Source: Chloroflexota bacterium (lineage in GTDB: Bacteria > Chloroflexota > Anaerolineae > SpSt-313). From it: a stretch of 64,000 nt of DNA. Made by a program: the position numbers and the translations under genes. Under the pieces are notes generated by a model. That model ran no database searches and had not been told where the DNA came from. It saw only the letters and a list, made by a program, of their open reading frames with translations. The stretch spans positions 30,692-94,691 of the forward strand of contig JAKPJZ010000034.1 of the NCBI GenBank assembly GCA_029553955.1, given 5' to 3'. Numbering within the stretch: the first letter of the stretch is position 1; every line of letters begins with the position of its first letter. This document shows, piece by piece, positions 20,078-53,066 of this stretch.

Positions 20078-20149
20078 GCGAGTTTACCTCCTAGCGAACC
20101 GAAGCAGGGCAAAGGTCGAAGATTGCCCTGATAATACATCAATCGCCGA

Positions 20150-20272: not shown

Positions 20273-20274
20273 GT

Positions 20275-35286: not shown

Positions 35287-35366
35287 ACGCCGCCCGTGTC
35301 GCTTGCCCGACGGGGCGCGTCATCCGGGCATTTCGCTTCGCTCATGACCGGAATGGAACCCTGTAT

Positions 35367-35422
35367 GGGGAGATCTCGGTGGGTTGGCCGCCCACGAGCG
35401 GCCAACCCACCGAGATCTCCCC
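35367..35422. repeat. Palindrome GGGGAGATCTCGGTGGGTTGGCCG-cccacgag-CGGCCAACCCACCGAGATCTCCCC
   Basis: Direct reading. Confidence 0.9.
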
Positions 35423-35462
35423 TTCCCAGGGGAGGCTTCTTGGGCCGCCCCACACCCGCGAT

Positions 35463-36356: not shown

Positions 36357-36436
36357 CACGACAACCCTACTTGTTGCGCCAGGCGGAGGAACGTCCGGGC
36401 CTCGAGCTTCGCAGAGTACCGGAGCTGAACCGTAAA

Positions 36437-36619
36437 GGGCTTTCTGGCGGGTAGGTGCAGCCGCGAGGCCGCCCGCGGGCGGCCTCGCGGCTGCACCTAC
36501 CCGCCAGAAAGCCCTCCTGGGCTGGGGCCGGGTTAGCGCGGAGCGAGTAGGCCGGCCACCACCCGGATAGCCGGTTGCCGTTGGGCTGCTGCTGCGTCAA
36601 GTACGGTCGTAGTATCAGG
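36437..36619. repeat. Composite intergenic element (palindrome 36437-36514, tail, and CAAGTACGGTCGTAGTATCAGG at 36598-36619)
   Basis: Apex GGCCGCCCGCGGGCGGCC. The end motif overlaps the stop codon of the 36615 CDS. Confidence 0.85.
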
Positions 36620-37811: not shown

Positions 37812-37846
37812 ATCCAGTGCCAGGGTTGGCGGCCTATGACCGCCCT

Positions 37847-38095
37847 GGAGATCGCTTCGCTGCGGCTGCTCAGTAACTTGGTCCTGTCATTGCGAGCGTA
37901 GCGAAGCAATCTCCACGTCGGGCATTGGAGTTGCCTCGCTTCGCTCGCAACCTGGGGCTGCTGCGCTGCGCTTGCAGCTATGAGATTGCTTCGTCGGCGG
38001 CTGCGGCCGCCTCCTCGCAATGACAGGCCAGGGTTCTGTGCTGGGCCCAGGGTTCCGCTAACCCTGGGATACTCGCAATGGCAGCCGCAACACTT
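37847..38095. repeat. GTCATTGCGAG / GCAATC-type nested palindromic repeat cluster
   Basis: GTCATTGCGAGCGTAGCGAAGCAATCTCCACGTCGGGCATTGGAGTTGCCTCGCTTCGCTCGCAA ... GATTGCTTCGTCGGCGGCTGCGGCCGCCTCCTCGCAATGACAG. Confidence 0.8.
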
Positions 38096-38168
38096 GCCTC
38101 GCGCAGGGTGCAGCAAGCCCCATGCCACAGATGGCCTGGAGAATGTCTGTCGCGAGAATGCTTGTAGT

Positions 38169-38248
38169 GAGGGAGGAGGTGACGGGGGCGTGGCGCAGGC
38201 GGCTGCCACGGCAGCCGCCTGCGCCACGCCCCCGTCACCTCCTCCCTC
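38169..38248. repeat. Perfect palindrome (GAGGGAGGAGGTGACGGGGGCGTGGCGCAGGCGGCTGCC-ac-complement)
   Basis: Direct reading. Confidence 0.9.
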
Positions 38249-38264
38249 ACGACGAACGAGGCTG

Positions 38265-39224
38265 CTAGCGCACCAGCTCGGGCATGGCCTGGGCGGCGGC
38301 GAGCCGCTCGGGGGCGATGTGGAAGGTGTGGGTCTCGCCGTGGGCCAGGTAGCGCACCCGGTCCTCCAGCCCCGCCGCCTCGACGCGGCGCTTGAACTCG
38401 TCGAGCGGCGATTTGAAGACGGTATAGTCGTTGTAGTGGATGGGGATGGCCAACCGCGGGTTGACGAGGCGCATGGCCTCGGCGCCCTGCCGCCCGTCCA
38501 TGGTGACCATGATGCCCAGGATGCGGGTGCCGCCCAGGTGCAGGAGCGCCAGGTCGATGTTGGGGAAGCGGCGCGGGATCTCTTGCAGCGCGGTGATGGC
38601 CAGGGTGTCGCCGGTGATGTAGAGCGTCACCAGCGGCCCGCCCGCGCCGGTGGCGAACTGCAGGACGCTGCCCATCACCGGCGGCAGCAGCGAGGCGACG
38701 CCGAGCGGCCCGTGCTGCCCCGGCGTGGCGGCGATCTGCAGGCGGGCGCCGCCACGCGCAAAGCCGACGGCCGACCAGGTGTGCAGCGGGATGGGCACGG
38801 CAAAGCCGCGGCGGCGCAGCGCCTGCTCGGCGTGGGGCGTGGTCACGATGGGCTGCAGCTTGTCGAGCTCGCGCTCGGCCACATAGTCAAAGTGGTCGCC
38901 GTGATAGTGCGAGAGCACGAGCAGATCGAGCGGCGGCAGGTCGCGGATTTCCAGGGCCGGGTCGGTGAGTCGTGTGGAGCGTAGGCCGTAGCCGAGGCGG
39001 GCCTGCTGGTGACGGTGCAAAAAGTTGGGGTCGGTGAGGATGGTGAAGCCGGCGTAGCGGATCAGGACGGTGGCCGTCCCGACAAAAAAGACCGAACCCT
39101 GCGCCAGGTCGGGGGCGGCGCCGCGCCCTGACGGCAGCGTGAACTCGGTGGCAACCTTCATGGCCTCAAGCCTCCATGCGAGCGTGAGGCCCGTATTGTA
39201 GGGCACGCGCCGCGGCGGCGTCAA
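38265..39224 (-). CDS. MBL-fold metallo-hydrolase
   Basis: LVLSHYHGDHFD is an HxHxDH-type motif. 319 aa. Confidence 0.75.
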   Translation of the reverse strand: MTPPRRVPYNTGLTLAWRLEAMKVATEFTLPSGRGAAPDLAQGSVFFVGTATVLIRYAGFTILTDPNFLHRHQQARLGYGLRSTRLTDPALEIRDLPPLDLLVLSHYHGDHFDYVAERELDKLQPIVTTPHAEQALRRRGFAVPIPLHTWSAVGFARGGARLQIAATPGQHGPLGVASLLPPVMGSVLQFATGAGGPLVTLYITGDTLAITALQEIPRRFPNIDLALLHLGGTRILGIMVTMDGRQGAEAMRLVNPRLAIPIHYNDYTVFKSPLDEFKRRVEAAGLEDRVRYLAHGETHTFHIAPERLAAAQAMPELVR

Positions 39225-39411
39225 GCCTTATGCAGAGCGCCCGGCCCCGCCTCCCTGTTGCGCCGGCATGAGCGGGCCGGCAGGCTGTAGGCGGGTGCTC
39301 GCTGAGAGTCTGGCATGGCCCGCAGGCCATGTGAACTGCCATGACGCCCGCAGACGTCATGAGCAGCGCTGCCGACACTACGCCCGTTCGCTACTACAAC
39401 CTGCTGGATGC

Positions 39412-40758
39412 CTAATCGCGTAGCTCAGCGACCAACTTGGCATGGCTTTCGCGCGTGATGGGGTATTTGATCAGCAGCGGCATCGTCAGCACAAACATCA
39501 GCACCGGCACCAGGCAGAAGAGGATGCGAATGCCCAAGAGAGTAAAGTCGGATTGGGCGACATTGGGCACATAGCCAAAGCCGGCCAACGTCCAACCTAC
39601 TGCGGCAATGGCAAGAGCATTGGCGAACTTGGTAATGAAATTCCACATGCCGTAATAGATGCCTTCGCGGCGTTCGCCGGTGGCGGCTTCATCAATCTCG
39701 ATCACATCAGGCACCATACTCCAGGGGCATACCCATTGTGCGGAAAGCCCCATGCCCGCGACGATGGCAGCAACGTACACATATGGTGTAGGGCCCTTGG
39801 GAACGAAGAATAATGTCAGAATTGCCACAGCAGCCACTGCAAGGCCTAGCGCATACGCTTTGCCCTTCCCGATGCGGTCTGCGATCATCTTCATCGGGTA
39901 AAGGAATACTCCAATCGTCAGCAAAAGTGCCAGCATGATGAAGGCCATCTGCTCTTCCATGTTGACCTGGTACTTGAGGTAATATGGCAACAGGGTCGTC
40001 AGGAGCGTAAAGCTGACATTGGCAATGAGGAATGCGGCAACCAGTTGGACAAAGGGTTTGTTCTTGAATGTCTGAACGAACGCTTTGATCGCCGGCATTT
40101 TGGAAGGCTGCACTTCCGAAACAGGCTTTTCTTTCACGCTGAAAGCAGTGATCAGGACGACTGCTGCTGCGTAAACGCCAAATGTCAGCCCCATGGCACT
40201 GTAGCTGGCCTGGGGCGACAGCCCGAGGTTCTTGGCATAAGCATCAGCGACGGTTACTGTCAATGCGGCACCAAGGATATAACCGACTACAGTGAATATC
40301 TCTCGTACAGTGGTCAGATTGGTACGTTCATCGTAGTCATAGGTCAGTTCAGGTGTCATCGCCGTATAGGCTACCGCGACGAACGTGTGGATGGTGTCGA
40401 ACAGAAGGAACGTGAATAGGACAACAAAAAAGGCAACGAAACCTGACATCCTGGCTGGGATGGAGAACAGCAGCCAAGTGGACAATGCCAGGGGGATGGC
40501 CAAGAAGAGCAGATATGGCCTGCGGCGACCCCAGCGCGACCTGGTGCGATCCGAGACATAGCCGAATACTACATCGTTGAAGGCATCCCAGGTGAATTTG
40601 CCTACCATAAGTGCAGTCCCTACTAATCCGGCATCCAAGAGCGCGATATCGGTATAGTAGAAAAGCAAGAAGAACTGGACTATGGAGGTGAGCATGGCAA
40701 TGCCAGAATCTGCGATGCCATAGAGAACCTTGATGCGATGCGGTATTCTGGCTGTCAT
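39412..40758 (-). CDS. GPH-family (MelB-like glycoside/pentoside/hexuronide) cation symporter
   Basis: ATG 40758 follows AAGGAAG (MTARIPHRIKVLYGIADSGIAM...). GYVSDRTRSRWGRRRPYLL is the GPH signature loop. Lies in the low-GC block. Confidence 0.8.
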   Translation of the reverse strand: MTARIPHRIKVLYGIADSGIAMLTSIVQFFLLFYYTDIALLDAGLVGTALMVGKFTWDAFNDVVFGYVSDRTRSRWGRRRPYLLFLAIPLALSTWLLFSIPARMSGFVAFFVVLFTFLLFDTIHTFVAVAYTAMTPELTYDYDERTNLTTVREIFTVVGYILGAALTVTVADAYAKNLGLSPQASYSAMGLTFGVYAAAVVLITAFSVKEKPVSEVQPSKMPAIKAFVQTFKNKPFVQLVAAFLIANVSFTLLTTLLPYYLKYQVNMEEQMAFIMLALLLTIGVFLYPMKMIADRIGKGKAYALGLAVAAVAILTLFFVPKGPTPYVYVAAIVAGMGLSAQWVCPWSMVPDVIEIDEAATGERREGIYYGMWNFITKFANALAIAAVGWTLAGFGYVPNVAQSDFTLLGIRILFCLVPVLMFVLTMPLLIKYPITRESHAKLVAELRD

Positions 40759-40917
40759 TGTGCTTCCTTTGCCTGGTCTGATCTCGCAATAGGGCTCCGG
40801 CTCACCGCAGAGACCGCGGAGGGCGCAGAGGAAGCTGAACAACCTCTGCACGCTCTGGGGTGAAAGCCAGACGGTGGACGTGAGCACACCGCTCGCAGGC
40901 GGTTCTGTCAGGCGCTC

Positions 40918-42648
40918 CTATTGAGGCTGCTGTCTGCCGCCATAGTGCTGTTTCGCCAACAAGAGGAACTCGTCGGCGCGGACAACCTTGACTCGCGCCG
41001 GGTCAAGCGTCTGAACAAAGTTGTAGACATCGGCGATCGTTGTGCGATAGGCGAAGAGATGCACTCCGATGAACCTCGGCGTTTGCGATGGGGCATCGAG
41101 CAACGCCTTGACCCCTGCCAGCACCTCTTCGCTGGTATCACGCACCTGCGAAAGGTGGGGCCAGGCATTGCACAAGAACACCTTGCCATAGCCACATCTG
41201 ACCGGTCTTGCCTTCACGAAAAAGTACCCGGAAAGGAAACCGAGGATATTCGATGGGGCCTGGAGGTGTTGCCTTATCACCTTGTCTGGCGGATCGGGAT
41301 AGTACGAAGTGATGACATTGATATCGGCCTTGGCGCAGGCCTGTGCTGAACGAAGCAGGTAATCGGGCAGATCATCATGCAATGGTGGGATGATATACCC
41401 CGCTCCGGATGGCCCAGCGACAAGGCAATCGTTGGGGGTCAGGCTGCTGTAGTAGAGACCCAACAGGGCAGGTGCGAGCTCGGCCAAAAGGGGCTGCATC
41501 TCCCAGTTGAAAGGCACCAGGCCGCGTTCAGGTCTGCGCCACCCTCCCACCTGTGCCGTATTCATCAGCATCAACTGATCGCCATCTGAATAGGTGAAGG
41601 TGAGGTAGGTCTTTTCCGGCTCGAGAACGACAGCGGATTCATGAATATGGAACTGCTTCAGGGGCACTGAAGCGGGCAAGGCGCTGTGAAACGAGAAGTT
41701 GGCGGCCAGATGCGCCGGCGCCAGGCGCAACCCATTGGCACTGAGCAGCACCATGAAGGAGAACTCGTCATCACGGTTGGTGTGCCAGCCAAAGATGACT
41801 GCCCCTGGTTGCTGGGCGACTCTTTTCTGAATGGCTATGGTCAGACCGACTTCGGGATCGGCCGACATTCTCTCGACGGCGAGCTGCTTCAACCTGCGGA
41901 ACAGGCCGGTGCCATAGATGATATTCCTCAGCCAGGAGGGGCCGCCCAGGCAGAGCAGCAAGAGCTTCCAGCCGCTGTTGAAGGCCTGGCCACTGCCCTT
42001 GCTGGAGAGGCCACAAGTGAATATTCTCTCCTTGACCACATAATCGATGAACTCGGGGCGGTGCCAGCCTGGCTCGATGCTGGCCACCTTGCCCGGTGTG
42101 CATCGAGAGAACAGATTCTCCAGTGCCCATGAATACAGTGCGATACGGTCTTGCCAGCGGCCGCGCAGATCTTGCTGAATGGGCAGCCCAAATCGCTCCG
42201 CCCAATCCACGTGATCGGGGCTGATAGGGAGCAGGCTCTCCAGGCTGCAGATCATGATAGCGACGTTGATGCTGTCTGGCTGCTCAGGGTCCCAAACAAC
42301 AAAGCCTTTGATGATAGGTAGGAAATGCGCAATGGCTTCTGCCAGACTGTCTACCCGCTGCGGCTGCAGCGGGTAGATCTTGGCGTAGGCATCCAGATTG
42401 TGCTGGTCCTGCTGGCCCAGAGCATCCCTGAATTTCTCTCTCCACAGCTCTTCGGAGATGAAATCCTCATTGGTCTTTCGAGACGCGGGGTCATCATAGA
42501 TGCCATAATCAAGAAACATGGCGGGCTGGGTGCGGTTTGCCAGCCCTTGCAGGCTGGCGGCCGTCACCTGGTCGTCATATCGCATCTCACCGACGGCGAG
42601 AACGATGATGGGGTATGTGCCGGTCATGGCCATGTCTAGTACCCCCAC
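40918..42648 (-). CDS. GxGYxYP-family putative glycoside hydrolase
   Basis: 576 aa with VAGPSGAGYIIPP, which fits the GxGYxYP motif. The start may be 42633. Overlaps the upstream gene's stop. Confidence 0.6.
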   Translation of the reverse strand: MGVLDMAMTGTYPIIVLAVGEMRYDDQVTAASLQGLANRTQPAMFLDYGIYDDPASRKTNEDFISEELWREKFRDALGQQDQHNLDAYAKIYPLQPQRVDSLAEAIAHFLPIIKGFVVWDPEQPDSINVAIMICSLESLLPISPDHVDWAERFGLPIQQDLRGRWQDRIALYSWALENLFSRCTPGKVASIEPGWHRPEFIDYVVKERIFTCGLSSKGSGQAFNSGWKLLLLCLGGPSWLRNIIYGTGLFRRLKQLAVERMSADPEVGLTIAIQKRVAQQPGAVIFGWHTNRDDEFSFMVLLSANGLRLAPAHLAANFSFHSALPASVPLKQFHIHESAVVLEPEKTYLTFTYSDGDQLMLMNTAQVGGWRRPERGLVPFNWEMQPLLAELAPALLGLYYSSLTPNDCLVAGPSGAGYIIPPLHDDLPDYLLRSAQACAKADINVITSYYPDPPDKVIRQHLQAPSNILGFLSGYFFVKARPVRCGYGKVFLCNAWPHLSQVRDTSEEVLAGVKALLDAPSQTPRFIGVHLFAYRTTIADVYNFVQTLDPARVKVVRADEFLLLAKQHYGGRQQPQ

Positions 42649-43967
42649 AAGCTGTGCGTCACTGTGCTCCAGGCAGGCAACCCTTCTGGCGTGTCAGGGT
42701 AGGCCAGATAATGCGCTTTGAGCCGGCGAGAAAGCCCGTATAGCGTGTCCATCAACTGAAGGCTGTTCGAGGAGAATGCGCCTTCCTGTACGCCCGCCCG
42801 CAATTGCCGGCAGATGGCTTCCCATCTTGCGGGTGGAAGGTTCAGCTCATAGTGCAGATTGAGGTACTCATAGTCTTCTTGGCAGAAGATGATCTTGTGC
42901 CGGTACAAGTAGTCCACTTCTTGCCTGGGCAGACCATTGACCGGGAACAAGAAGGCCATCACCCCAGCGAACTTGGCTCCCTGCCCGCGCAAGTAGCGCA
43001 CATTGTATTCCCAGAGCCCCTTGCGGCTGACATCGCCCTGCTCGAGGGCAGCCAGAATGACCTCTTGAGCAATGCTGCAGGCAGTGAACCCGCTGGTGAT
43101 ACCCTCGCCAGAGAAGGCTTTGTTCTGATAGACGCAATCACCCACGCCCGCAAAACCATCGCCCACATAGGAGGATGGAGCGCGACGATAGGGTGAGCAC
43201 CCTACCCGCCTGGCGACCAATCTGCCAGGATGGCCATACGTTGTCTCTCGCCATTGGGTCAACGCATTGCGGGCATTGTCGGCGCTGCCGGGAGCGATAA
43301 TGCCCAGGATGGCACCGTCTCCATAGGACTTGTTCCAGAATCCGGGCGCACCAAGGAACGAGTTGTTGTCAGTCGGAAAACCGGCAGGGATATCATCCCG
43401 CAATTCCAATGCGCAGAAGAAGGTCTGCTCTGGGGGAAGAGGGCAGTTTTCCACGCCAAAGCCATCCGGCAGACGCGTTCGTACAGCGCCGGCAGTCCCT
43501 GAGGCATCAACGGTGATCCTGGCACGTGCTTCAAAAGGCTCACCTGCGCACGTGCCGCGCACACCGCAGCAGAAGCCGTTATCGATGATCGCATCTTCCA
43601 CACGGGCATGGTCGATGATCCTGCCGCCCGCCTGGCGCACATAGCCGTGCAGCCGTTGTACAAAAGCGGGCATGTTGGCGACATAAAAGGGATAGCGCAC
43701 CTCGAAATGCTCGCTGCCATCGATGGACCACACTCTGTTGGCCGGCACCAGGTGCAAGCGCTCGGGAGGAAGCGGATGGGGGATAGCGAACTCGTCAAAG
43801 CGGACCTGGTCCAAATGGATGACCTCGATGTGCGCGCCTACCTTCTCTAGAGGCAGGGCTTCCAAGAGGAGCACATCGCAACCAGCCTGTGCCAGTTTCC
43901 AGCCCAGGTAGGAACCGGTTGGTCCTGCGCCCACAATAAGGACATCTGCAGTGCAAGTCTGGGCCAT
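42636..43967 (-). CDS. FAD-dependent oxidoreductase (geranylgeranyl-reductase-like fold)
   Basis: DVLIVGAGPTGSYLGWKLAQAGCDVLLLE is a GxGxxG-plus-acidic dinucleotide motif. Confidence 0.75.
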   Translation of the reverse strand: MAQTCTADVLIVGAGPTGSYLGWKLAQAGCDVLLLEALPLEKVGAHIEVIHLDQVRFDEFAIPHPLPPERLHLVPANRVWSIDGSEHFEVRYPFYVANMPAFVQRLHGYVRQAGGRIIDHARVEDAIIDNGFCCGVRGTCAGEPFEARARITVDASGTAGAVRTRLPDGFGVENCPLPPEQTFFCALELRDDIPAGFPTDNNSFLGAPGFWNKSYGDGAILGIIAPGSADNARNALTQWRETTYGHPGRLVARRVGCSPYRRAPSSYVGDGFAGVGDCVYQNKAFSGEGITSGFTACSIAQEVILAALEQGDVSRKGLWEYNVRYLRGQGAKFAGVMAFLFPVNGLPRQEVDYLYRHKIIFCQEDYEYLNLHYELNLPPARWEAICRQLRAGVQEGAFSSNSLQLMDTLYGLSRRLKAHYLAYPDTPEGLPAWSTVTHSLWGY

Positions 43968-44425
43968 CGGGCACCTCCAGTGTCATGCGTGGCATCTGGG
44001 CCCCTGTGGACAGAGCAGTGCACGATTCGTCTCTCGTCATGGTACCGGAAGAGGCGCCGCGAGTCCACGGCGTAGTCCTGATCTGGCCTCATGCCAGTCT
44101 CAGGTTGTACCTGCGGACCGCCACGGGCAGCGCTTCCACGTAGCTGCGTCCTCCAACGGCTGCGCACACGCGTCTCGTCCTGTTGCATCAGATGAAAGCG
44201 TCACCGGTGCGGGGTGTTGCCGTGCCAACGACCAGAGAGCTCTCCCTCCTGGCCAGAGCCGGGCGCAAGCGCAGCGGGTCAGCCGGCAGCCATCCGGACC
44301 ACCTGCGGCTGCCCGCATGAAGCACGATCAACCCGGGCATGCAGCGCCTCCCGTTCAGAGGCTTGGGGTGGCGGCGGGAAGGCTCGAAAGAGAGAGGCCG
44401 CTCTGAGTGTGCGGCCACAATGCAA

Positions 44426-44489
44426 AGCGGGAGACGGGGCTTGAACCCGCGACAGCCTGCTTGGAAGGCAGGAGCTCTACCACTGAGCT
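44426..44489 (-). other. 3' remnant of tRNA-Gly(UCC) (D-arm to discriminator, no 5' acceptor strand): attL-type junction
   Basis: 44448-44489 is identical over 42 nt to 51387-51428 inside the intact tRNA-Gly. The T-arm differs (GCGGGTTCAAGCCCCGT versus GCGAGTTCAAATCTCGT). The 5' side reads GTTTCGA, which is not complementary to CTCCCGC. Confidence 0.85.
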
Positions 44490-45055
44490 CGAAACCACAA
44501 GATGTAGTATGTTGCCTCAGTCTACACCACTACCAGTAGTGTTTTGGCTTTTGCAGCATAAGGCTGTCATACAGATGTTCTAGCGCCGCTGCTACTTCGC
44601 ACTACAGAACCGGCGCCTGACAACAGAAAACCCGCCCCAGGTTTGCTACCTAGAGCGGGTTGTGATAAACTGTCCTCCGCCTGGGTGGGCAATCACCTGG
44701 GCCGCGCCTCGGGGTGCTCGTAACACCGCCGGGGCTTTTCTATTGTCACCCCCATTGTACCACTCGGGCGCCGATGTTGCCAAGTCGGGGGGGGCTGTCT
44801 CCTCCGGGGAAAGGCATGTTTTGGCGGGTTTTCGCCCCCCTACCCCTATTTCGCGGTCGTCCGAGCAAGATTGCCCGAACGGTCTTCGTGACCGTCCGGC
44901 CCAGCGATTTTGACGCCCCTGCCGAGTTCGGCAAACCCGTACAGCAAAAAAACTAGGGCTGGCACCGGTAGCTAGTGAGGGCTGTGAAGATTGAAGGGGC
45001 CTATCCCCCCCCTGCCGCCCTACAGGCTGGGGCGGCTACACACCGCCCCTTGCCG

Positions 45056-45799
45056 TTACACCTGCGCGGTCACCCGCTCCCGCCTGGCCGCCGCTTCGGC
45101 AAGCTCGCGCTCTACCTCGGCTAGCTCGCCTTCCGCTTCCAAGACGCGGGCCTGCTGCGCCTCTATGACCCCGCTCCCCGCCTGCTGTTCCTGCAGGGTA
45201 GCCAGGCGTTGCCTTTCGTTGCGCAGCCTGGACTGAGCGTTCAGCAGCGCACGCTCTCCGGGCGTAGGCGGCCGCTTGATGCCCAGGGCTTCCACGTCCA
45301 GGCCAGGAACCTGCAGCAGGGCGTTTTCAAGCTGGGCTATTGCTAGGTCAAGCTGTTTGACCGTGCAGCCGGTACCTACGGTCCGCATCCGTGCACCTCG
45401 GGCGCACAAGCGGCCCAGCTCGGCGCGCTTGGCGTCCGCTTTGGCCAGGGTCTCCCTGGCCGTCTGCAGCTGGCCATGGAGAGTGCCCAGGAGGTCAACG
45501 AACACCGCGTTAACCTTCTCGGCCTCGGCCTGGACCACCTGCCGCCGGCGCTCTTGTTCCTGGGCCTTGATGTGCTCAATCTGGCGGTCCATGGCCGCCA
45601 GGCCGGTACGCCCTACCCGCGCCTTGTGGGCCGCGGCTTCCATGTCGGCGGTCACGGCCGCGATGCTCTTGCCCTCGGCCAGCAGCTCGCCGGCTTGGGC
45701 CTCTGCGTCGCGGGCCGCCTGCTCCAGCCTGGCCACCTCGGCGGCCAGGGCCGCCCGGCGGGCTTGGAGGTCTTCTAGTGTGGGTGCGTTCTTCGCCAT
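45056..45799 (-). CDS. Coiled-coil hypothetical protein (element ORF, 247 aa)
   Basis: Ala/Glu/Gln/Arg-rich heptad-like sequence throughout. The start lies 6 nt after the upstream stop. Confidence 0.55.
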   Translation of the reverse strand: MAKNAPTLEDLQARRAALAAEVARLEQAARDAEAQAGELLAEGKSIAAVTADMEAAAHKARVGRTGLAAMDRQIEHIKAQEQERRRQVVQAEAEKVNAVFVDLLGTLHGQLQTARETLAKADAKRAELGRLCARGARMRTVGTGCTVKQLDLAIAQLENALLQVPGLDVEALGIKRPPTPGERALLNAQSRLRNERQRLATLQEQQAGSGVIEAQQARVLEAEGELAEVERELAEAAARRERVTAQV

Positions 45800-45805
45800 G
45801 ATGTG

Positions 45806-46147
45806 CTACCCTTTCTCTACAATGCGGCTCTCGCGCCGGTCGCGCACGTCGTGCCCGCGGATTTCCTCAAGGAGCTCTACCAGGTCTCTCTTGAGACCGT
45901 ACCACGCATTCCCTGGGCAGCGCTGCCCACTCCGCACCCAACGTTGCAGGGCGGCCAGCCTGTCTGGGAAGGCGAGCTCTGCCAGGCGCCGCGCCCTGCG
46001 CTGGGCGTCGGTGGCGTTCGCCGGCAAGGGCCGGTCTCTGACCTTGAGGAAGAGCAGTTGCAGCTCCCTCAGCTCTGCCTCTTGCTCCACGCGGGTAGGC
46101 GCCAGCCCTCCGCTGGTTGTCTTCATGTCTACGTCTGCGCGCTCCAT
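45806..46147 (-). CDS. Hypothetical protein (element ORF, 113 aa; alternative start 46126)
   Basis: Track ORF, tightly packed in the operon. No family recognised. Confidence 0.5.
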   Translation of the reverse strand: MERADVDMKTTSGGLAPTRVEQEAELRELQLLFLKVRDRPLPANATDAQRRARRLAELAFPDRLAALQRWVRSGQRCPGNAWYGLKRDLVELLEEIRGHDVRDRRESRIVEKG

Positions 46148-46542
46148 CGTCTCTGTCGTCCTTTCTTCCGGGGCCGCTGCCCCTCAGCCGGTCCTGTAAC
46201 GCTTCGTCCAAGTCCACCACCGTCGCCAACATCCAGCACCGCCGGCAACCAGTGGGGCCGCCGGTAGTGGTAGCGCCCCTTGACCAGCGGCAGGCCAAGC
46301 ATGGCGCCATCCGCCGCGTAGGTTAGCCACGATGTAGGAACCAGCTTCACGACACCGCTCTGTAGCAGGTCCGAGACGGCCCCCGCAAACGCATCATTCA
46401 CGCCGCTCCACAGCACCACGTTGTCATTGTCGCCCAGGGTCAACTGGCCGTCGCCGGCCATGTCAGCGCCTAGCGAGCGCTCAAGCTCTACAAAGCTCAC
46501 GTGGCGCCGCCCGCGCACCAGGTCAAGGATTCGCTGCTTCAT
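46129..46542 (-). CDS. Hypothetical protein (element ORF, 137 aa)
   Basis: The ATG at 46542 overlaps the primase-helicase stop (ATGA). Sequence begins MKQRILDLVRGRRHVSFVELERSL... Confidence 0.5.
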   Translation of the reverse strand: MKQRILDLVRGRRHVSFVELERSLGADMAGDGQLTLGDNDNVVLWSGVNDAFAGAVSDLLQSGVVKLVPTSWLTYAADGAMLGLPLVKGRYHYRRPHWLPAVLDVGDGGGLGRSVTGPAEGQRPRKKGRQRRWSAQT

Positions 46543-48938
46543 GCTGTCATCTCCTCGGCCCGCTCCTCGCAGAACGAGCAACATGCCTGCCCATCTGGGC
46601 CACGGCGCAGGGTGGGCAGGCCACAGTACGCGCAGTCCTCAGCCGTCGGCCCCCCCTCGGGCTCTACTGTCGTTACTGACGTTACTGACGTTTGTAGGAG
46701 AGGGTCAGGCAAAACGACTGCGTGTGTCTGCGCAAGTCGCTGCAGGTCTGAAAGGGTTACCACGCGCACGCGCTTGCTTGGATTACCTACCCGCTTGGGC
46801 TGCAAACGCATGCGCGACAATGCCTTGCCTACTGTACGGTTGTTGATCCAATCGCCGTCAGCGTCTTCTTCCTCGGCGGCCAGCTTCGTTGCCGCCGTGA
46901 TTGCGCTCACTGTCATTTGGTATTGTCGTTCTGCCTTACCCTCGGATGAAACGACAGTAATGACAGTAACGTCAGTAACGACAGTAACCCCACGCTCTGC
47001 ATCGCCTGCCAACCTGAGCAGTGCTTGTGCCACGAACCTGCCTATACCTGTCTGCTCTAGCTCGCGGCGCTCGCTCTGGTAGCTCTGCGCCAAAGTGTGC
47101 AGGCGGTCGAACAGGCCCGCCGCGCCGCGCTCTTGCAGCCATAGGGCCACGGCCAGGATTGCCCGCCAGGGCTCCAGTGTCCGGCCCATCAGCGCACATT
47201 CCGCGCCGACTCGCTCATCGTAGGCGGGCAGATCGGGCAGGCTGGCCAGGCCCAGCGCCCACAGGTCGCTGAGCAGCTTCTTGCGGTCATGCGGCCAGCG
47301 GCCATACTCTAGGGGATCGCTGTTGGCCTTCTGGCGGTCGATTGTCCGCACCAGGGGCACCACCACGCTGCGCGATGCCAGCACCGCGTCGGGCACGTTG
47401 ATTGCCGAGAACAGTCGGGGGCAGTAGGTGCTCACGTGTCGCGTTACCCACGTACGATCACCAGCGGGTTCCTTCATGGGCACGCTGCTTCCCCGGCGGT
47501 TGCCGGCCAACAGCAGGGTCCGCTTGTCAGGGTCACACTTCTTGGGGTCCGAGAGCGCTTCAGCGTCGTCGAAGCCCAGGGTCGCGCCATAGTCGGCGAG
47601 ATCACGCAGGGCAGCGAACGTGCCCCCGCTCTGGATCACGTGCCCCAGGTAGGCGAGCTCGCAGATCAAGACCAGGAGTTGTGTCTTGCCGGAGCCCGAC
47701 TCGCCGTTGGGCCATAGGTAGCCGAACACCTGAAACGCATCCTGTAGCCACGTGGCCAGGATGTAGGCGGCCACCATCTCACACATGGTGCGTTGATCGC
47801 CCAGGCTGCGGTCAAAGTCGATGAAGCGGTCCACCACGTCGGCCACCCGCCGGAACACGTCCACGGGGTCGGGCCGCTGGCCGGCGCGGTACGCTTTGAC
47901 GCCCGCCGCGCTCCAGCCCTTGCCGTCCATAACTACCTCCGGCAGGTGCGCATCGATGCCCAGGTCGTCCATGGGCCGGTCGCCACCGTCGCCGAAGATC
48001 ACCCCATCGTCACGGATCACAAACAGCCGCCGCGCCCTGGTGACTGTAGGCGGGTTCAACCTCAACACCTGCCCGCTCTTCTCATCCAGCCGTTCCGTGA
48101 CCGTCGTTTCGGTCCACAGCCACGCCGCCGCGTAGCTCCTGCCTTCGATCAAGGCCAGGGGGCGACGCATGACCAATGGCGCGTCGTCGAGCAGCCGCAC
48201 CTGTGGGGGCGCCGCCTGGGGAAGGGGCCGGGGCGCTTCGATCAGCGCCTCAAGCTCCTGCACCGTGTGGCCGGCGGCCAGGTAGTCGTCTACGCCAATC
48301 TTGCCGTTGCCGTTGGCCGGCAGGTACACCCGGCCCACGTGGGCGCCCTTGCGTTGCAGGTGCTCGGTCAGCCGCTCAAGCGCCTGCTGCACCTCGCGCT
48401 TCGTCATCACGTCCGAGTCGAAGCAGATCACCACGTCGCGCGCGTTCAACGCGATGTAGTCAAAGTCGGCCAAGAGGGTCACGCCACCAGCGGCATTCTT
48501 GCCAACAAAGTTCCACACGCCCAGCAGCGCCACAGCACACAGCCCTTGCGATGCCAGGCTGTCGGCTTTCTTCTGGCCCTCGGTGATCCACAGCCGCACC
48601 GAGGGGTCCGCCAACATCGGGCGGCATGGTGGCGGGCAGTCCAGCCGTGTGCTCGTACCCTTAGGCACCTCGTACTTGATCGCCTTGTCTTGCCCGGTCT
48701 TGCGGTCATGGACAACGCGCGGATTGTCGGGCCGGTAGACGTTCAGCCCGTTGTGGCCGTCGGTTGTCCACAAGGGCAAGAGCAGGCCAGGCACCCGGCA
48801 TTGCGAGGGAACAAAGCCCAGCTTGCGCAGATCGGCGGGGTCGTCGATGGTCCGGTAACCGCGCGCCTGGATCACCGCATCAGCGATGCCCGACTCGTCT
48901 CGTAGCATCTTCAAATGGAGATCGGAAACGTCAGCCAT
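46539..48938 (-). CDS. Toprim (DUF3854-like) primase domain fused to a P-loop NTPase/helicase, with a C-terminal zinc finger
   Basis: LWITEGQKKADSL is the Toprim Glu and VVICFDSD the DxD. Walker A is NGESGSGKT. The C-terminus reads CAYCGLPTLRRGPDGQACCSFC. Confidence 0.8.
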   Translation of the reverse strand: MADVSDLHLKMLRDESGIADAVIQARGYRTIDDPADLRKLGFVPSQCRVPGLLLPLWTTDGHNGLNVYRPDNPRVVHDRKTGQDKAIKYEVPKGTSTRLDCPPPCRPMLADPSVRLWITEGQKKADSLASQGLCAVALLGVWNFVGKNAAGGVTLLADFDYIALNARDVVICFDSDVMTKREVQQALERLTEHLQRKGAHVGRVYLPANGNGKIGVDDYLAAGHTVQELEALIEAPRPLPQAAPPQVRLLDDAPLVMRRPLALIEGRSYAAAWLWTETTVTERLDEKSGQVLRLNPPTVTRARRLFVIRDDGVIFGDGGDRPMDDLGIDAHLPEVVMDGKGWSAAGVKAYRAGQRPDPVDVFRRVADVVDRFIDFDRSLGDQRTMCEMVAAYILATWLQDAFQVFGYLWPNGESGSGKTQLLVLICELAYLGHVIQSGGTFAALRDLADYGATLGFDDAEALSDPKKCDPDKRTLLLAGNRRGSSVPMKEPAGDRTWVTRHVSTYCPRLFSAINVPDAVLASRSVVVPLVRTIDRQKANSDPLEYGRWPHDRKKLLSDLWALGLASLPDLPAYDERVGAECALMGRTLEPWRAILAVALWLQERGAAGLFDRLHTLAQSYQSERRELEQTGIGRFVAQALLRLAGDAERGVTVVTDVTVITVVSSEGKAERQYQMTVSAITAATKLAAEEEDADGDWINNRTVGKALSRMRLQPKRVGNPSKRVRVVTLSDLQRLAQTHAVVLPDPLLQTSVTSVTTVEPEGGPTAEDCAYCGLPTLRRGPDGQACCSFCEERAEEMTA
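46664..46689. repeat. Iteron-like cluster A: CTACTGTC-GTTACTGAC-GTTACTGAC
   Basis: Direct reading. Lies inside the 3' end of the primase-helicase CDS. Confidence 0.8.
46951..46986. repeat. Iteron-like cluster B: four 9-nt units ACGACAGTA-ATGACAGTA-ACGTCAGTA-ACGACAGTA (reverse complement of cluster A units)
   Basis: GTCAGTAAC is the reverse complement of GTTACTGAC. The clusters are inverted and about 260 bp apart. Confidence 0.8.
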
Positions 48939-48968
48939 GGCGCCCCCTACTCAAACAGGCTGGCCTGG

Positions 48969-49181
48969 TCACTGCTGCACCCCCTCGGCTGCGAGGTGTT
49001 CGCGCAGCCGCCGGCGCTCGCCTTCGGCAATCTCGTTGAGCAGGGAATCGCCAAAGCGCAGCCGTGTCATTTCCTTCGTGATGTGCTCAGCCACCAAGCG
49101 GGCCAGTTGGGGGTCAGCGCTGCGCCCGATGGGAATCAGCGCGCCTTGCTCACTGCGCCTGCAGAGCTGGACTTCTAGCAT
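48969..49181 (-). CDS. Small hypothetical protein (element ORF, 70 aa)
   Basis: Track ORF that fills the gap between two element genes. Confidence 0.4.
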   Translation of the reverse strand: MLEVQLCRRSEQGALIPIGRSADPQLARLVAEHITKEMTRLRFGDSLLNEIAEGERRRLREHLAAEGVQQ

Positions 49182-49267
49182 GTTGCCCTCCCTGGAATCA
49201 AAACGGCCCAGTCCAAAGACTGGGCCAGCGTTTCGCTCTCTACTATGTACCAGGGTAGGCTGTGACG

Positions 49268-50356
49268 TTATGGCATGGCGGTCGTTTGCAGCAGATCGCA
49301 GACTTTGCGTTTCGCTCGTGACCGCCGCTGGCGCGTGGCGTCGTCGGTTGCGTCGCTCTGCAGCGCCTCACGCTCTAGGGGGGTCAGCTTCCCCAGGATG
49401 GGCGCGAGCTCCTGCAACAAGCGAAGCTGCTCCATGGTCAGGCCGGCCGCCGCCCCCAGTTGGGCCGCCATCTCGGCCTCCAGCTTCAGGGCCTCGGGCG
49501 TGTCTTCGTCGGGCAAAGGGGCCTCTTGGCGCCCTCGGTATTCGTCCAGTGTGGCGCCATCGAGCAGGGCCTGCTCGATCCGCGCTCGCACCTGGCGGCG
49601 CAACCACCGGTATGCATAGTCCAGGTTGAGATTGTCCGGTATTTCGCGCCCAGCCATGTACAGCGCCGGACTGGCCGCCATGCGCCAGGCGCTCGCAAAG
49701 CTCAGGCTGACCCCCTCCGGCCCGGCCTCGGCCCGGTACTGCTGGAAGGCCGGCTCAAGCAACGCCCAGCGTCGGGTGTGGAACACCGCCCCCCGCTGAA
49801 AGTAGCGCTCCAGCAGGCGGTCGAGCGCCGCCTGGACGGCCTCGGGGTCGTCATTGCTCCGCAGAATGAGCACGTCCCCTTGAAAGCGCCCCGGTTGGAA
49901 GGGCTCGGCCAACCGAATGAGCGCTCCTAGATCGGGTAGATTCAGCGTTTCCAGCACAGGCGCCAGGTCGCGCATGAGCTCGGCGCATTTCGTGGCCACG
50001 CGGGCGAGATCGGCAAACGCTTGCCGGGTGGGGCTAGCGATGCTCGCCGCCGTTGCCGCCACCTCGTTTACGATGTCCTTGATCAGCCTTTGCTCAGCGT
50101 TGCCCACGAAAAGACCGCCCTTTCCGTTTGCCGGTAGGCGGTCTTCGTGGTACACTATACCCGTCAGCCGCCCGCACCGGTTGACCATGCCCCAGACGCC
50201 GCTAACGTCGTGGGGCTTTTCCCTTGTCGCAGAGTCTACACGATTCGCGCCAAGTCCGCAAGCGACTCGCTCGCCCGTTCTGCCGGCGCAAGGGGCCGGC
50301 CACGACGGGCAGGCCAGCACCGGCCCGCTGGCGATGTAGTAGCTCTGTTTCTTCAT
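49268..50356 (-). CDS. Hypothetical protein with a possible sigma-70 region-4-like C-terminal HTH
   Basis: The start overlaps the integrase stop by 4 nt. The C-terminal LTPLEREALQSDATDDATRQRRSRAKRKV resembles region 4.2 (weak). Confidence 0.5.
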   Translation of the reverse strand: MKKQSYYIASGPVLACPSWPAPCAGRTGERVACGLGANRVDSATREKPHDVSGVWGMVNRCGRLTGIVYHEDRLPANGKGGLFVGNAEQRLIKDIVNEVAATAASIASPTRQAFADLARVATKCAELMRDLAPVLETLNLPDLGALIRLAEPFQPGRFQGDVLILRSNDDPEAVQAALDRLLERYFQRGAVFHTRRWALLEPAFQQYRAEAGPEGVSLSFASAWRMAASPALYMAGREIPDNLNLDYAYRWLRRQVRARIEQALLDGATLDEYRGRQEAPLPDEDTPEALKLEAEMAAQLGAAAGLTMEQLRLLQELAPILGKLTPLEREALQSDATDDATRQRRSRAKRKVCDLLQTTAMP

Positions 50357-51291
50357 AGCAGCTTATCCGCCGGCGAGTGGGCCGCGTGCGCCCGCTCCAC
50401 ATCTTCACCAGTCAGGGCTAGGTATCTTTGCAGCACGGTTAGGCTTGAGTGGCCCATGAGCAGCCGTAAGCTGTGCAAGTCCATACCATCGCGCAGGCAC
50501 CAGAGGGCGAAGGTTCGCCGGAAGCGGTGTGGCCCGCAGGGGCTCACCCCAGCTGCCCGCCCGAGACGTACCAGAGCCGTCTGCAGGCCGTGGACACTGA
50601 GCGCGCCACACTCGCAGCCTTGGAGGTCATAGGCCGGCCAGAGGGCCGCCCTGGGCGAAGGCTCGCCTCGATACGCCATGAGGCGCAGAATGGCCGCCCG
50701 CGCCTTGTTGCCCACTCTCACCTGTCGCTGCTTGCGCCCTTTGCCCAGCACCACCGCCAAGCCGGTACGCATGTCCACATCGCCCACCCGCAGGGCCACG
50801 CACTCCGCCGCCCGCAGGCCGGTATCGAGCAGCACCAGGATAAGGGCATAGTTGCGCGCACCGGTCGCCGTTTTGCGGTCGCAGGCGGTCAGCAGCTTGT
50901 GTACCTCTTCAGGGGTGAAAGGCGGTGGGACTCTCTGCTCTAATCGGGGCATGGCAACACGGGCCATAGGCGACTCGCTCAAGTCGCCCTCTCTCACCAG
51001 CCAATTGAGCCAGGCTTTGATACCACGGGCGTGGGCGTGTTGGGTGGTATCTTTGACGCCACGCTCCTGTATGCTCACCAGGTAGGCGCGCACATGGCCG
51101 GCTTTGATGTGGGCCACATCTCGGACGTCTTGGGCCTTCAACCAGGCCACAAAGCCGCCGACGGTGTATCGGTAGTGTTCGAGGGTCTTGGGTGTGCAGC
51201 GTGCGGCTTGCCTATCCAACAGGAAGCCCTGTAACGCCGCGTCAAGTGGTGAAAACTTGAGGATGTGCAGCGTAAGATGCTCAGCAGACAT
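50353..51291 (-). CDS. Tyrosine recombinase/integrase (XerC/D-like)
   Basis: Catalytic pattern LLDTGLRAAE (Arg), GKGRKQR (Lys), HRFRRTF (HxxR) and MGHSSLTVLQRY (His...Tyr). Confidence 0.9.
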   Translation of the reverse strand: MSAEHLTLHILKFSPLDAALQGFLLDRQAARCTPKTLEHYRYTVGGFVAWLKAQDVRDVAHIKAGHVRAYLVSIQERGVKDTTQHAHARGIKAWLNWLVREGDLSESPMARVAMPRLEQRVPPPFTPEEVHKLLTACDRKTATGARNYALILVLLDTGLRAAECVALRVGDVDMRTGLAVVLGKGRKQRQVRVGNKARAAILRLMAYRGEPSPRAALWPAYDLQGCECGALSVHGLQTALVRLGRAAGVSPCGPHRFRRTFALWCLRDGMDLHSLRLLMGHSSLTVLQRYLALTGEDVERAHAAHSPADKLL

Positions 51292-51364
51292 GAAAAAAGC
51301 CCTCCCTCCTGTTACCCACTACTAGTAGTAGGTTGCAGGTCAGAGGGCTACTACATCTTGTGTA

Positions 51365-51436
51365 AGCGGGAGACGAGATTTGAACTCGCGACAGCCTGCT
51401 TGGAAGGCAGGAGCTCTACCACTGAGCTACTCCCGC
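51365..51436 (-). tRNA. tRNA-Gly (anticodon UCC)
   Basis: The reverse complement GCGGGAG-TA-GCTC-AGTGGTA-GAGC-T-CCTGC-CTTCCAA-GCAGG-CTGTC-GCGAG-TTCAAAT-CTCGT-CTCCCGC-T folds as a 72-nt cloverleaf. No CCA is encoded. Confidence 0.9.
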
Positions 51437-51442
51437 GTGCAG

Positions 51443-51516
51443 TCGGGGCGAGAGGACTTGAACCTCCGACTTCAGCGTCCCAAACGCTGCGCGCTACCAA
51501 TCTGCGCCACGCCCCG
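51443..51516 (-). tRNA. tRNA-Pro (anticodon UGG)
   Basis: The reverse complement CGGGGCG-TG-GCGC-AGATTGGTA-GCGC-G-CAGCG-TTTGGGA-CGCTG-AAGTC-GGAGG-TTCAAGT-CCTCT-CGCCCCG-A is 74 nt. Confidence 0.9.
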
Positions 51517-51526
51517 TCTGGCTATG

Positions 51527-51555
51527 AGTATAATCAGAACCCCGTGCCTGGTCAA
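51527..51555 (-). promoter_or_regulatory. Promoter of the tRNA-Pro/tRNA-Gly pair (TTGACC-N17-TATACT)
   Basis: The minus strand reads cTTGACCaggcacggggttctgatTATACTcatagccaga, followed by the tRNA-Pro 5' end. Confidence 0.6.
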
Positions 51556-51902
51556 GCAGCCGCCAGGCACGGGGTGTATCCCAGAATCGTCGGTGCATTT
51601 CTGGCCCGAATGATGCGTATGGTCTCGGCGTCTGCCGCCCACGCCCGAGGCTCCCGTGGTAAGCCTCGGGCTACAGAAACAAAGCCCCTATGGGGCTGGT
51701 GTCGCCCCTGAACGCCGTGATCTCGGGAGACACGCGCCCACGGCGGCAAGCAGCCGAGGTCAAGCGTAGACGATTCGAAGCGCACGAGCCCGCAGGGCTT
51801 TGTCTCTGTAGCCCGAGGCTTGACGGGAGCCTCGGGCGGAGCGGCGTGCGCAACGTATGCCTGTTGCACAGACGATTGTGGGATACACCCGCGGGCATGG
51901 TT

Positions 51903-51952
51903 GAACCACGAAGGACACAAAGGACAGGTTCCCTTTGTGTCCTTCGTGGTTC
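51903..51952. repeat. Perfect 21-bp hairpin of the CACGAAGG-ACACAAAGG type
   Basis: GAACCACGAAGGACACAAAGG-acaggttc-CCTTTGTGTCCTTCGTGGTTC. Overlaps the stop of the 51951 CDS. Confidence 0.85.
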
Positions 51953-53066
51953 AGCCTCGTCCCTCCAGCGCCTCTCCGTACACCTCCTCCACGCGCTGCA
52001 CCATACGCTCGAGGCCGAATTCGCGCTGGGCGCGGGCGCGGGCGTGGGCGCCGAGGCGACGGCGGTGCTCGGGGTCGCTGAGCAGGTCGCGGCAGGCGCG
52101 GGCGAGCGCCTGCGGGTCGCGTGGGGGCACGACAAGGCCCGTCTCGCCGTGGCGGTTGACAAACGAGGTGCCGGTGCCGAGCTCGGTCGAGACCACCGGC
52201 AGCCCGGCGGCCATGGCCTCGACTTGCACCAGGCCGTAGGCCTCGCTGCGTTCGCAGGCCGGCAGGACGAAGAGGTCGGCGGCGTGGTAGCAGGCGGGCA
52301 GGCCGGCGTCGGCCACGTCGCCCAGCCAGGACACACGCCCGGCCACGCCCAGTTCGCCCGCGAGCGCCTGCCACTCGGCGGCCATGGACCCCGTGCCCAC
52401 GACCGCCAGGTGCGCGCCGGGCAGGTCGGCGAGGGCGCGCAGCAGGTACTGCAGGCCCTTGTAGTAGCGCAGCCGGCCCACGAAAAGCAGCAGCGGCCGC
52501 CCGAGCTGCGCCCGCCGGCGGGCCACCTGCGCCGGGTCCGCCGCCTCGAAGCGCGCGGTGTCGATGCCCAGCGGCACCAGGCGGCAGCGATCCGTCACCG
52601 GCTTGAGGAAGGGCGAGGTCGCGAGGTAGGCCGGGCTGGTGACGATGATGCGCTGGGCGGCGCGCAGCGCGCGGCGCAGCGCGGGGGCGTAGAGGGCGAG
52701 AATGCGGCGCTGCCTGACCACGTCGGACTGGTAGCTGATCACCGTCGCCCGCGCGCGGCCCCACAGCCGGTTGGCCAGCTCGCCCACGGGGTAGGGCGAC
52801 TGCACGTGGGCCACGTCGGGCCGCAGCCGCGCCAGCTCGCGGGCCAGCGCCAGGCTGAGCGGCGTCGAGGCCACCGTGGCCAGGCGGCCGGCCTTGATCA
52901 CCTGCACGCCGTTCAGTTCCTCGCGCACGGTGCGCCGGCTGGGGTCGGTCACGAGCACCGTCACCTCGTGGCCGCGTCGCGCCTGCGCCTCGGCGAGGGC
53001 GCGCAGGTGGTTCTCGATGCCGCCGAGCACCGGGAAGTAGTCTTTGTAGATGTGGAGGATCCTCAA
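51951..53066 (-). CDS. Glycosyltransferase family 4 (GT-B)
   Basis: MRILHIYKDYFPVLGGIENHLRALAEAQARRGHEVTVL, with a C-terminal E-x7-E-type region (ERSEAYGLVQVEAMAAGLPVV). Confidence 0.85.
   Translation of the reverse strand: MRILHIYKDYFPVLGGIENHLRALAEAQARRGHEVTVLVTDPSRRTVREELNGVQVIKAGRLATVASTPLSLALARELARLRPDVAHVQSPYPVGELANRLWGRARATVISYQSDVVRQRRILALYAPALRRALRAAQRIIVTSPAYLATSPFLKPVTDRCRLVPLGIDTARFEAADPAQVARRRAQLGRPLLLFVGRLRYYKGLQYLLRALADLPGAHLAVVGTGSMAAEWQALAGELGVAGRVSWLGDVADAGLPACYHAADLFVLPACERSEAYGLVQVEAMAAGLPVVSTELGTGTSFVNRHGETGLVVPPRDPQALARACRDLLSDPEHRRRLGAHARARAQREFGLERMVQRVEEVYGEALEGRG

Follow-up and report, generated by a model that had tools for sequence, protein, structure and literature searches.

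The 64,000-nt stretch of DNA analysed here (the window; positions 30,692 to 94,691 of contig JAKPJZ010000034.1, Chloroflexota assembly GCA_029553955.1) contains a 6.9-kb mobile element which is integrated in a tRNA-Gly gene of an Anaerolineae chromosome. This confirms an earlier note on the same DNA, made from the letters alone. The element is best read as an integrative, self-replicating mobile element of phage ancestry, belonging to a large family that has no name; the probability of this reading is put at roughly 0.7. Its seven open reading frames (ORFs) are all real and all lie on the minus strand, as the note had it. No structural, packaging, relaxase or transfer genes were found among the seven proteins (Pfam, PHROGs, NCBIfam). 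No defence system was found by PADLOC, whose sole match is the DnaG-like domain of the replication protein, pri799. The layout first described, with integrase, primase-helicase and origin but no structural or transfer genes, is upheld.

Integration in tRNA-Gly

The element lies between two copies of a tRNA-Gly sequence. The features of its ends are as follows.

44425-44489, minus strand: attR, the displaced native 3' part of tRNA-Gly (tRNA nt 9-72 plus 1), from the repeat finder, Rfam and the T-stem of a related locus, L112
44497-44509, no strand: 13-nt inverted-repeat arm ACAAGATGTAGTA, partner at 51349-51361
44527-44541: palindromic CCACTACCAGTAGTG motif beside the ACAAGATGTAGTA arm
50353-51291, minus strand: int312, a XerC/D-like tyrosine recombinase (Pfam, PHROGs, NCBIfam)
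51298-51349, minus strand: long hairpin with a U6 tract immediately ahead of the int ATG (z -4.4)
51349-51361, no strand: 13-nt inverted-repeat arm TACTACATCTTGT, partner at 44497-44509
51365-51436, minus strand: tRNA-Gly(UCC), attL, the intact hybrid (ARAGORN and Rfam)
51442-51516, minus strand: tRNA-Pro (ARAGORN and Rfam)

A 42-nt identical block had been noticed in tRNA-Gly(UCC) and at the opposite end of the element. It is the core of a longer direct repeat of 65 nt, 94% identical between 44425-44489 and 51364-51428 (repeat finder). The core is perfect (44448-44489 equals 51387-51428, tRNA nt 9-50) and is seen exactly twice in the window against 0 expected. In Rfam the left copy gets 44 bits as part of a tRNA (model positions 9-63), and a terminator-like hairpin stands on its host side. 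All 4 mismatches of the repeat fall in the T-arm. When both copies are aligned, the remnant reads GCGGG/CCCGT where the intact gene reads GCGAG/CTCGT, the same difference that had been described earlier.

A related Anaerolineae species points to the remnant as the native half. Its locus L112, reached via the flanking glycosyltransferase, is 79% identical in protein and 82% in DNA (L113 was also found but ends before the tRNAs). The gene order in L112 is glycosyltransferase, tRNA-Pro, tRNA-Gly and, 155 bp later, cobW. The tRNA-Gly of L112 is uninterrupted; its T-stem is GCGGG/CCCGT, and over 64 nt it shares 96.9% identity with the window remnant. This match shows, as had been proposed, that the remnant is the native 3' half, which the element displaced and for which it supplied a replacement. 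In the attL tRNA-Gly, the 5' part is host sequence and the T-arm and everything 3' of the crossover are element-supplied.

To judge from the repeat, the crossover must fall within tRNA-Gly nt 9-50. Going by established knowledge of tRNA-targeting integrases, the symmetric anticodon stem-loop is the likely core. The integrase would join an attP carrying tRNA-Gly nt 9-72 with the chromosomal tRNA, and with a crossover in nt 9-50 the tRNA would stay functional. The attB junction would be expected to consist of the tRNA-Gly 5' part with a GCGGGTTCAAGCCCCGT T-arm, then TGCATTGTGGCCGCAC; the attP junction would lead from the sRNA2-CGAAACC side via the 65-nt core to TACTACATCTTGT and int. The inverted repeats reported at the element ends are real and 13 nt long, but they are not the core-type recombinase sites they had been taken for: in the rejoined attP the two arms would stand 74 bp apart, which rules this out. 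CCACTAC..GTAGTG motifs similar to those of the window flank the att region of the relative L016.

The int312 protein matches PF00589 (Pfam, E 3e-29) and holds the full R..K..HxxR..H..Y set, including R160, HxxR at 255-258, H281 and Y290. The hairpin at 51298-51349 encloses the int Shine-Dalgarno sequence and would end tRNA read-through. Two marks of the tRNA-integrating tyrosine-recombinase islands are thus present, namely a catalytic recombinase beside the att site and direct repeats which derive from tRNA 3' duplication, the displaced copy being native.

The same element occurs elsewhere. Exact-protein look-ups with int, pri, p247 and the flanking oxidoreductase as queries place it, at ~99.9-100% identity and integrated at the same locus, in at least 7 samples. 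The NCBI metagenome-assembled genome (MAG) GCA_035377745.1 is one of these; samples that contain the element include JGI 3300010344, 3300009767 and 3300009715, ENA ERZ795049, ERZ795058 and ERZ27257448, and SRR4236674. Two contigs end inside the att core, as expected for a repeat.

Replication protein, likely origin and family

Replication is assigned to the largest gene, pri, and to repeats inside it.

46539-48938, minus strand: pri799, replication protein (Pfam, PHROGs, homologue alignment, structure model)
46953-46988, minus strand: iteron set A, four copies of the 9-bp GTTACTGWC, candidate origin inside pri (repeat finder, direct count)
46665-46692, plus strand: iteron set B, three copies of the same 9-mer inverted, ~265 bp from set A

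The protein comprises a DnaG/Toprim primase core (residues ~1-250), a P-loop ATPase, a C-terminal helical or winged-helix-like region and a terminal CxxC..CxxC ribbon. Its N-terminus matches DUF3854/Toprim (Pfam PF12965, E 1.8e-22, above the curated cut-off), as in the CyRepA-type proteins. Eighteen homologues share without variation the Toprim residues E120 and D174-x-D176, Walker A (412-419), Walker B (456-460) and an LLLAGN motif. The AlphaFold model has a mean predicted local distance difference test score (pLDDT) of 71.7 and matches the DnaG RNA-polymerase core fold with probability 1.0; full-length fold matches are phage Toprim-helicase fusion proteins, with E down to 5e-19. On the authors' own reading, the spacing of the ATPase motifs looks like that of superfamily 3 (SF3) helicases. 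The DEXDc domain was not detected, no helicase family was matched in Pfam or NCBIfam, and searches of PDB sequences with pri799 and its family profile gave nothing useful. The earlier description as a 799-aa primase-helicase stands for the DUF3854/Toprim part and the invariant Walker residues; its helicase half found no family in profile searches.

Both iteron sets lie in the 3' part of the pri gene and encode a VTVVTDVTVITVV-like peptide. Elsewhere in the window GTTACTGWC occurs once, at 40253. These counts are direct counts of the 9-mer, used after the iteron pattern GTNACNGTNAC... matched nothing. Relatives have the two-set layout at the same place with other 9-mers (TTACCGCCG, TTAGCTCCA, TTAGTGCCA, TTAATGCCG); a constant layout with lineage-specific 9-mers is what is expected of Rep-binding iterons. 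In the Staphylococcus aureus pathogenicity islands (SaPIs) the origin consists of two iteron sets around a spacer, next to rep. In phage lambda, ori lies inside gene O, and the iterons within pri are comparable. By analogy, the inverted iteron sets are likely to be the replication origin. The excised circle would replicate from them, and the C-terminal DNA-binding part of pri799 (residues ~630-745) would bind the iterons as do SaPI Rep, lambda O and P4 alpha.

Full-length homologues of pri799 form more than 1,250 clusters in metagenomes, at ~55% identity. Those with names come from Anaerolineae/Chloroflexi, Blastocatellia, Chloracidobacterium and Binatia. No full-length counterpart of the family is present in isolate-derived phage and plasmid collections, whose members have only the N-terminal domain in common with pri799. 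Relatives adjoin an integrase as well as a tRNA, the latter for Gly, Arg, Leu, Lys, Ser or Met, and a compact architecture of 5.7-7.8 kb recurs in several lineages. In L021 a 7.0-kb element lies between perfect 84-bp tRNA-Leu repeats; L060 has 145-bp repeats 5.7 kb apart. Apart from pri, a structured RNA and an integrase, gene content is mosaic, and the cargo of relatives is phage-type (resolvase-like, DUF669-like and Pam3 gp34-like proteins). In eight loci (L063, L071, L076-L078, L082, L084 and L094) the tyrosine integrase is replaced by a large serine recombinase of ~555 aa downstream of pri, exemplified by L077 13900-15579; upstream of pri, this subfamily encodes a protein of 369 aa whose C-terminal part is a helix-turn-helix.

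Junctions of the attP type (tail, att, int), such as a circle or a tandem array would give, are seen in relatives L016 and L020 only. In L016, the closest relative, the tail is followed by RNA copy 2, a defective tRNA-Asn-like stretch and int. In L020 the order is tail, tRNA-Arg, int, and L024 has the host junction at the same tRNA-Arg. The reading of L020 as a clean circle was rejected, since the sequence does not wrap exactly at its ends and L019 departs from it past the shared block; L020 is more likely to be two related elements in tandem.

Relatives also occur in viral contigs. A single-protein scan of IMG/VR found no close relative of pri799; an alignment-based scan found 7 viral-contig loci with 39-65% identity. 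L010 (IMGVR_UViG_3300025678_000041, noted at 15396-20940) is a 35-kb viral contig whose replication protein is 55% identical; its rep gene holds the iterons TTAGCTCCA. It encodes a terminase large subunit, a portal, a head morphogenesis protein and a scaffold, and has a weak major-head-protein match (E 4e-4). The replication module therefore occurs in real tailed phages too, and L010 is a candidate relative of a helper phage.

The presence of the replication-protein family in complete phages, and the fact that neither a circular form nor an empty site of this element was seen, would also suit a decaying, immobile prophage remnant which keeps only its lysogeny and replication modules. This is improbable. 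The ORFs are all intact and tightly packed, and the att repeat still has its perfect core. The same minimal architecture, with both RNAs, stands at another tRNA between perfect repeats in L021, and L016 and L020 have tail-att-int junctions. Random decay would not repeatedly yield the same compact end product.

It is more improbable still that conjugation moves the element, as an integrative mobilisable one whose Toprim protein serves DNA transfer and not vegetative replication. Cyanobacterial plasmid DUF3854 domains do lie under genes annotated as MobF/TraI-like relaxases. In the present element, however, coupling protein, FtsK-like translocase and relaxase families have no match in Pfam, NCBIfam or PHROGs, an oriT-like feature was not found, and the iteron layout and full-length fold matches point to phage-type primase-helicases.

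Structured RNA, accessory genes and flanking DNA

The remaining features of the element are two copies of a structured small RNA and five smaller genes.

50105-50228, minus strand: structured small RNA copy 1 (covariance model), with a promoter-like TTGCGG-17-TAGACT at 50261-50233
44622-44747, minus strand: structured small RNA copy 2, with a promoter-like TTGGCA-18-TACAAT at 44783-44754
49268-50107, minus strand: p279, of a family with a C-terminus like region 4 of extracytoplasmic function (ECF) sigma factors; GTG start at 50107
49204-49227, minus strand: terminator-like hairpin between p279 and p70
48969-49181, minus strand: p70, small protein upstream of pri, with a weak match to anti-sigma zf-HC2
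46129-46542, minus strand: p137, directly after pri in close relatives (phrog_7134, E 2.9e-17, a phage family)
45806-46147, minus strand: p113 (106 aa in one annotation), no family
45056-45799, minus strand: p247, coiled-coil orphan with 2 near-identical homologues among 5.8 billion proteins
44858-44969, minus strand: conserved non-coding block (GGGGCGTCAAAAT ... GGCAATCTTGCTCGNACG), present twice in L018

The RNA is ~125 nt long and has three hairpins, its own promoter-like site and a terminator. Both window copies start with GACAA, 6-7 nt past the -10 box, and both end in a terminator; that of copy 2 is intrinsic (44661-44629), and the U-tract of that of copy 1 overlaps the p279 GTG start. 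Copy 1 came to light, through a covariance model of 4 relatives, within the 5' part of what had been called a 362-aa ORF; a second model scores it at 88 bits. Across 26 distinct sequences, aligned by fitting to the model, 93.7% of cells are paired and double changes occur in 29 of 31 pairs, as compared with 33-47% pairing in slid controls; a MAFFT alignment of 4 sequences already gives 6 compensatory pairs. Two copies per element are found in the window, in L021 (5660-5786 and 10417-10545) and in L032 (716-852 and 8953-9078). For the RNA, neither 43000-53000 nor the L016 copy has an Rfam match at E up to 1. The RNA model gives no significant match in L010, and the conserved non-coding block at 44858-44969 is absent from IMG/VR.

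Copy 1 stands before p279, p70 and pri; copy 2 would precede attP and int in the circular element. The copies are probably leaders or attenuators, or else a trans-acting immunity or copy-control RNA. Each would form a promoter-plus-terminator unit ahead of an operon, with the terminators insulating expression, and p279 (sigma-like) and p70 (possibly anti-sigma) may act jointly with the RNAs.

The 362-aa ORF was called too long: the promoter and the RNA gene at 50105-50228 are what its first ~83 codons cover. The protein is 279 aa from the GTG at 50107. This is the length called by NCBI annotation of MAG GCA_035377745.1, and the best of 78 p279 homologue clusters is 280 aa long and aligns from residue 1. 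The re-annotation also removes the overlap of int with this ORF. Among the 4-nt ATGA overlaps reported earlier, that of pri and p137 is genuine; the others are not gene junctions.

A sigma region-4-like tail had been suggested for this protein. It is present in the family: Sigma70_r4_2 is matched by 11/31 members, and the family profile matches ECF sigma region 4 in PDB (E 7e-5). The window member itself has no such match. Sigma region 2 was not detected in p279. The p279 model is confident (pLDDT 85.8) and nearly all its top fold matches are sigma factors. The p70 match to zf-HC2 (E 0.0096) is below the Pfam cut-off, and p70 has no homologue in the other loci. It stands directly after p279, and the two may form a sigma/anti-sigma-like pair. 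Homologues of p137 are found in L016, L017, L021 and L022. Essentially none are found for p279, p70, p113 or p247 in 95 related loci, and these four are therefore not core genes of the family.

Outside the element, the 10.7 kb between the att remnant and cobW (33757-44424) are missing from L112. This block encodes a flavin adenine dinucleotide (FAD) oxidoreductase, a GxGYxYP glycoside hydrolase, a major facilitator superfamily (MFS) transporter, a lactamase_B protein, GHL10 and a ferredoxin. Towards the tRNA the block is lower in G+C (0.52-0.60 over 39.5-44 kb against 0.64 for the whole block). The block may be a separate acquisition, or it may have been lost in L112; a third att remnant marking it as an older island was sought and none was found. 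A hairpin resembling repetitive extragenic palindromic (REP) elements (AACCACGAAGGNCACAAAGG and its complement) occurs at 51899-51956 and 33833-33895, so that its copies mark both outer edges of the 18-kb stretch missing from L112. The spacer between tRNA-Pro and the glycosyltransferase contains large nested palindromes, which give spurious microRNA matches in Rfam; the nested inverted repeats are at 51572-51597/51865-51890 and 51661-51687/51795-51821. BLAST of the contig against the window gives extra matches of 76-87 nt at 95-100% identity, some inverted (36436-36515, 38164-38250, 32850-32925), which may be short dispersed host-genome repeats. In L112, positions 11100-11290 upstream of tRNA-Pro hold tandem GCGTAAT/GCGTGAT heptamers and their inverted complement.

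Mode of spread and comparison with known systems

Several observations weigh against an integrative, self-replicating element of phage ancestry. Neither its own circular junction nor an empty site in the same species was found; all assemblies spanning the site have the element integrated. The check for an empty site in related genomes, proposed in the earlier note, yielded the remnant T-stem in the L112 tRNA but no clean empty site: L112 is another species and is also without the further 10.7 kb. The 17.6 kb between tRNA-Gly and cobW in the window consist of the 6.9-kb element and a 10.7-kb sugar-utilisation cluster. An excisionase was not recognised. The origin is assigned purely by analogy. 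The ATPase part of pri799 is poorly modelled (pLDDT <50 over residues 400-523), and this domain has no match in Pfam, NCBIfam or PDB sequences. The window p279 has a deletion of ~12 aa in the helix-turn-helix and no sigma match itself, and no sigma factor matches its fold significantly (E >=0.14). An antisense search with the conserved linker found no target for the RNA, whose role is read from its position.

The leading candidate for the spread of the element is by way of the capsids of a helper phage which uses the same replication-protein family. The element may, tentatively, be a minimalist phage satellite. [quoted passage not shown] The gene set (integrase, regulator, primase-helicase and a few unknowns) and the size match the PICMI minimum (PMC10803314). 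The same replication-protein family occurs in the tailed phage contig L010, p137 belongs to a phage protein family, the cargo of relatives is phage-type, and the compact 5.7-7.8-kb architecture is repeated across lineages. However, genes for terS, capsid, portal, Sid/Psu/Cpm-like proteins and AlpA were not found (Pfam, PHROGs, NCBIfam), and PADLOC adds no defence system. IMG/VR lacks both a close pri799 relative by single-protein scan and the conserved non-coding block, the 7 loci coming from the alignment scan. L010, the sole IMG/VR locus proven to be a phage, gives no significant match to the RNA model, and no helper prophage is evident in the window.

An integrative plasmid without dedicated transfer, persisting vertically and spreading rarely by transformation, vesicles or generalised transduction, is an equally tentative reading. 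The integration module is complete, a replication module is present and nothing else is recognisable. The element is found integrated only, at one locus, in many samples. In cyanobacteria, proteins with the same DUF3854 primase domain, though with another helicase domain, are proven plasmid initiators (PMC9978351, PMC10079941). The very wide spread of the family over phyla and tRNA sites nevertheless argues for efficient transfer, and p137, the cargo of relatives and L010 link the family to phages.

A bolder proposal, and an unlikely one, is that the element represents the first minimalist phage-satellite family in Chloroflexota, Acidobacteriota and neighbouring uncultivated phyla, in which the duplicated RNA, with the sigma/anti-sigma-like pair, runs the switch between the integrated and the replicating state. 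If so, one RNA copy would guard the replication operon and the other would guard attP and int only after circularisation. This would be an RNA immunity or antitermination circuit analogous, but not related, to P4 CI RNA or HK022 put.

Genomes often contain small islands with nothing but an integrase and a primase, whose route of spread is mostly obscure; with the integrative element described here it can be tested how little suffices for a mobile element to persist. The hosts of the family belong to poorly studied phyla which dominate anaerobic digesters, soils and sediments. A rep gene with a likely internal origin is a minimal replicon and could serve as a vector backbone for Anaerolineae. 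The new covarying RNA motif is duplicated, and its position-specific placement suggests a regulatory circuit.

The gene content fits the layout of a phage satellite or small integrated plasmid suggested in the earlier note, but it does not match the marker sets of P4-like satellites, phage-inducible chromosomal islands (PICIs) or PICMIs. P4 likewise integrates in a tRNA gene (tRNA-Leu). It has one protein of ~800 aa which, like pri799, combines a Toprim-type primase, an ATPase with SF3-like spacing and a putative iteron-binding C-terminus, and it has small structured RNAs ahead of the replication operon (CI RNA immunity in P4). However, the NCBIfam P4-family primase model gives no match on pri799, and the P4-like markers sid, psu, delta, eps, alpA and alpha have none in Pfam, PHROGs or NCBIfam at E up to 0.1. 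The RNA of the element matches neither C4/CI nor IsrK in Rfam at E up to 1, the iterons are inside the rep gene, and no helper is known.

PICIs and SaPIs have the same order of integrase, regulators and pri-rep and a similar two-set origin layout. They differ in that terS, ppi, cpm and other packaging or interference genes were not found in the element; none of its seven proteins has a PHROGs match to head or packaging families. Their integrase is of another type, and the element is about half their size and has a Chloroflexota host. PICMIs of Vibrionaceae are alike in consisting of an integrase, one regulator, a primase and a few unknowns, without capsid-remodelling genes (PMC10803314). Their markers are int, AlpA (PF05930/PF12728) and a DUF3987/DUF5906 primase, next to fis (PMC10803314). 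In the element AlpA and DUF3987/DUF5906 are unmatched (Pfam), and the integration site is a tRNA rather than fis.

Two cyanobacterial primase-helicases with DUF3854, CyRepA1 and CyRepA2, have been shown by experiment to initiate plasmid replication (PMC9978351, PMC10079941). In their replicons, pSYSA and pCC5.2, an N-terminal DUF3854 is likewise followed by an ATPase or helicase (PMC9978351, PMC10079941). A small ORF stands directly upstream of rep in both cases (ssr7036 there, p70 here), and the cyanobacterial replicons have RNA-based control, as the element probably does. The CyRepA replicons differ in that they are free plasmids and have no integrase. The alignment extends over the N-terminal ~220 residues only (30-35% identity), and DEXDc is undetected in pri799; the RNAs are an antisense pair there and two sense-strand paralogues here.

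The archaeal integrative plasmids of the pRN family (pSSVi/pSSVx) and the pSAM2-type elements of actinomycetes are also small tRNA-integrating replicons, in which an integrase is combined with a large primase-helicase or Rep protein. Among the pRN plasmids, some are carried as satellites by fuselloviruses. They differ in having a prim-pol Rep (pRN) or an FtsK-like Tra and RepSA (pSAM2); the proteins of the element are unrelated and include no Tra-like gene. Three findings are new: how large and how phylogenetically broad the family is, the likely origin within rep, and the structured RNA in two copies.

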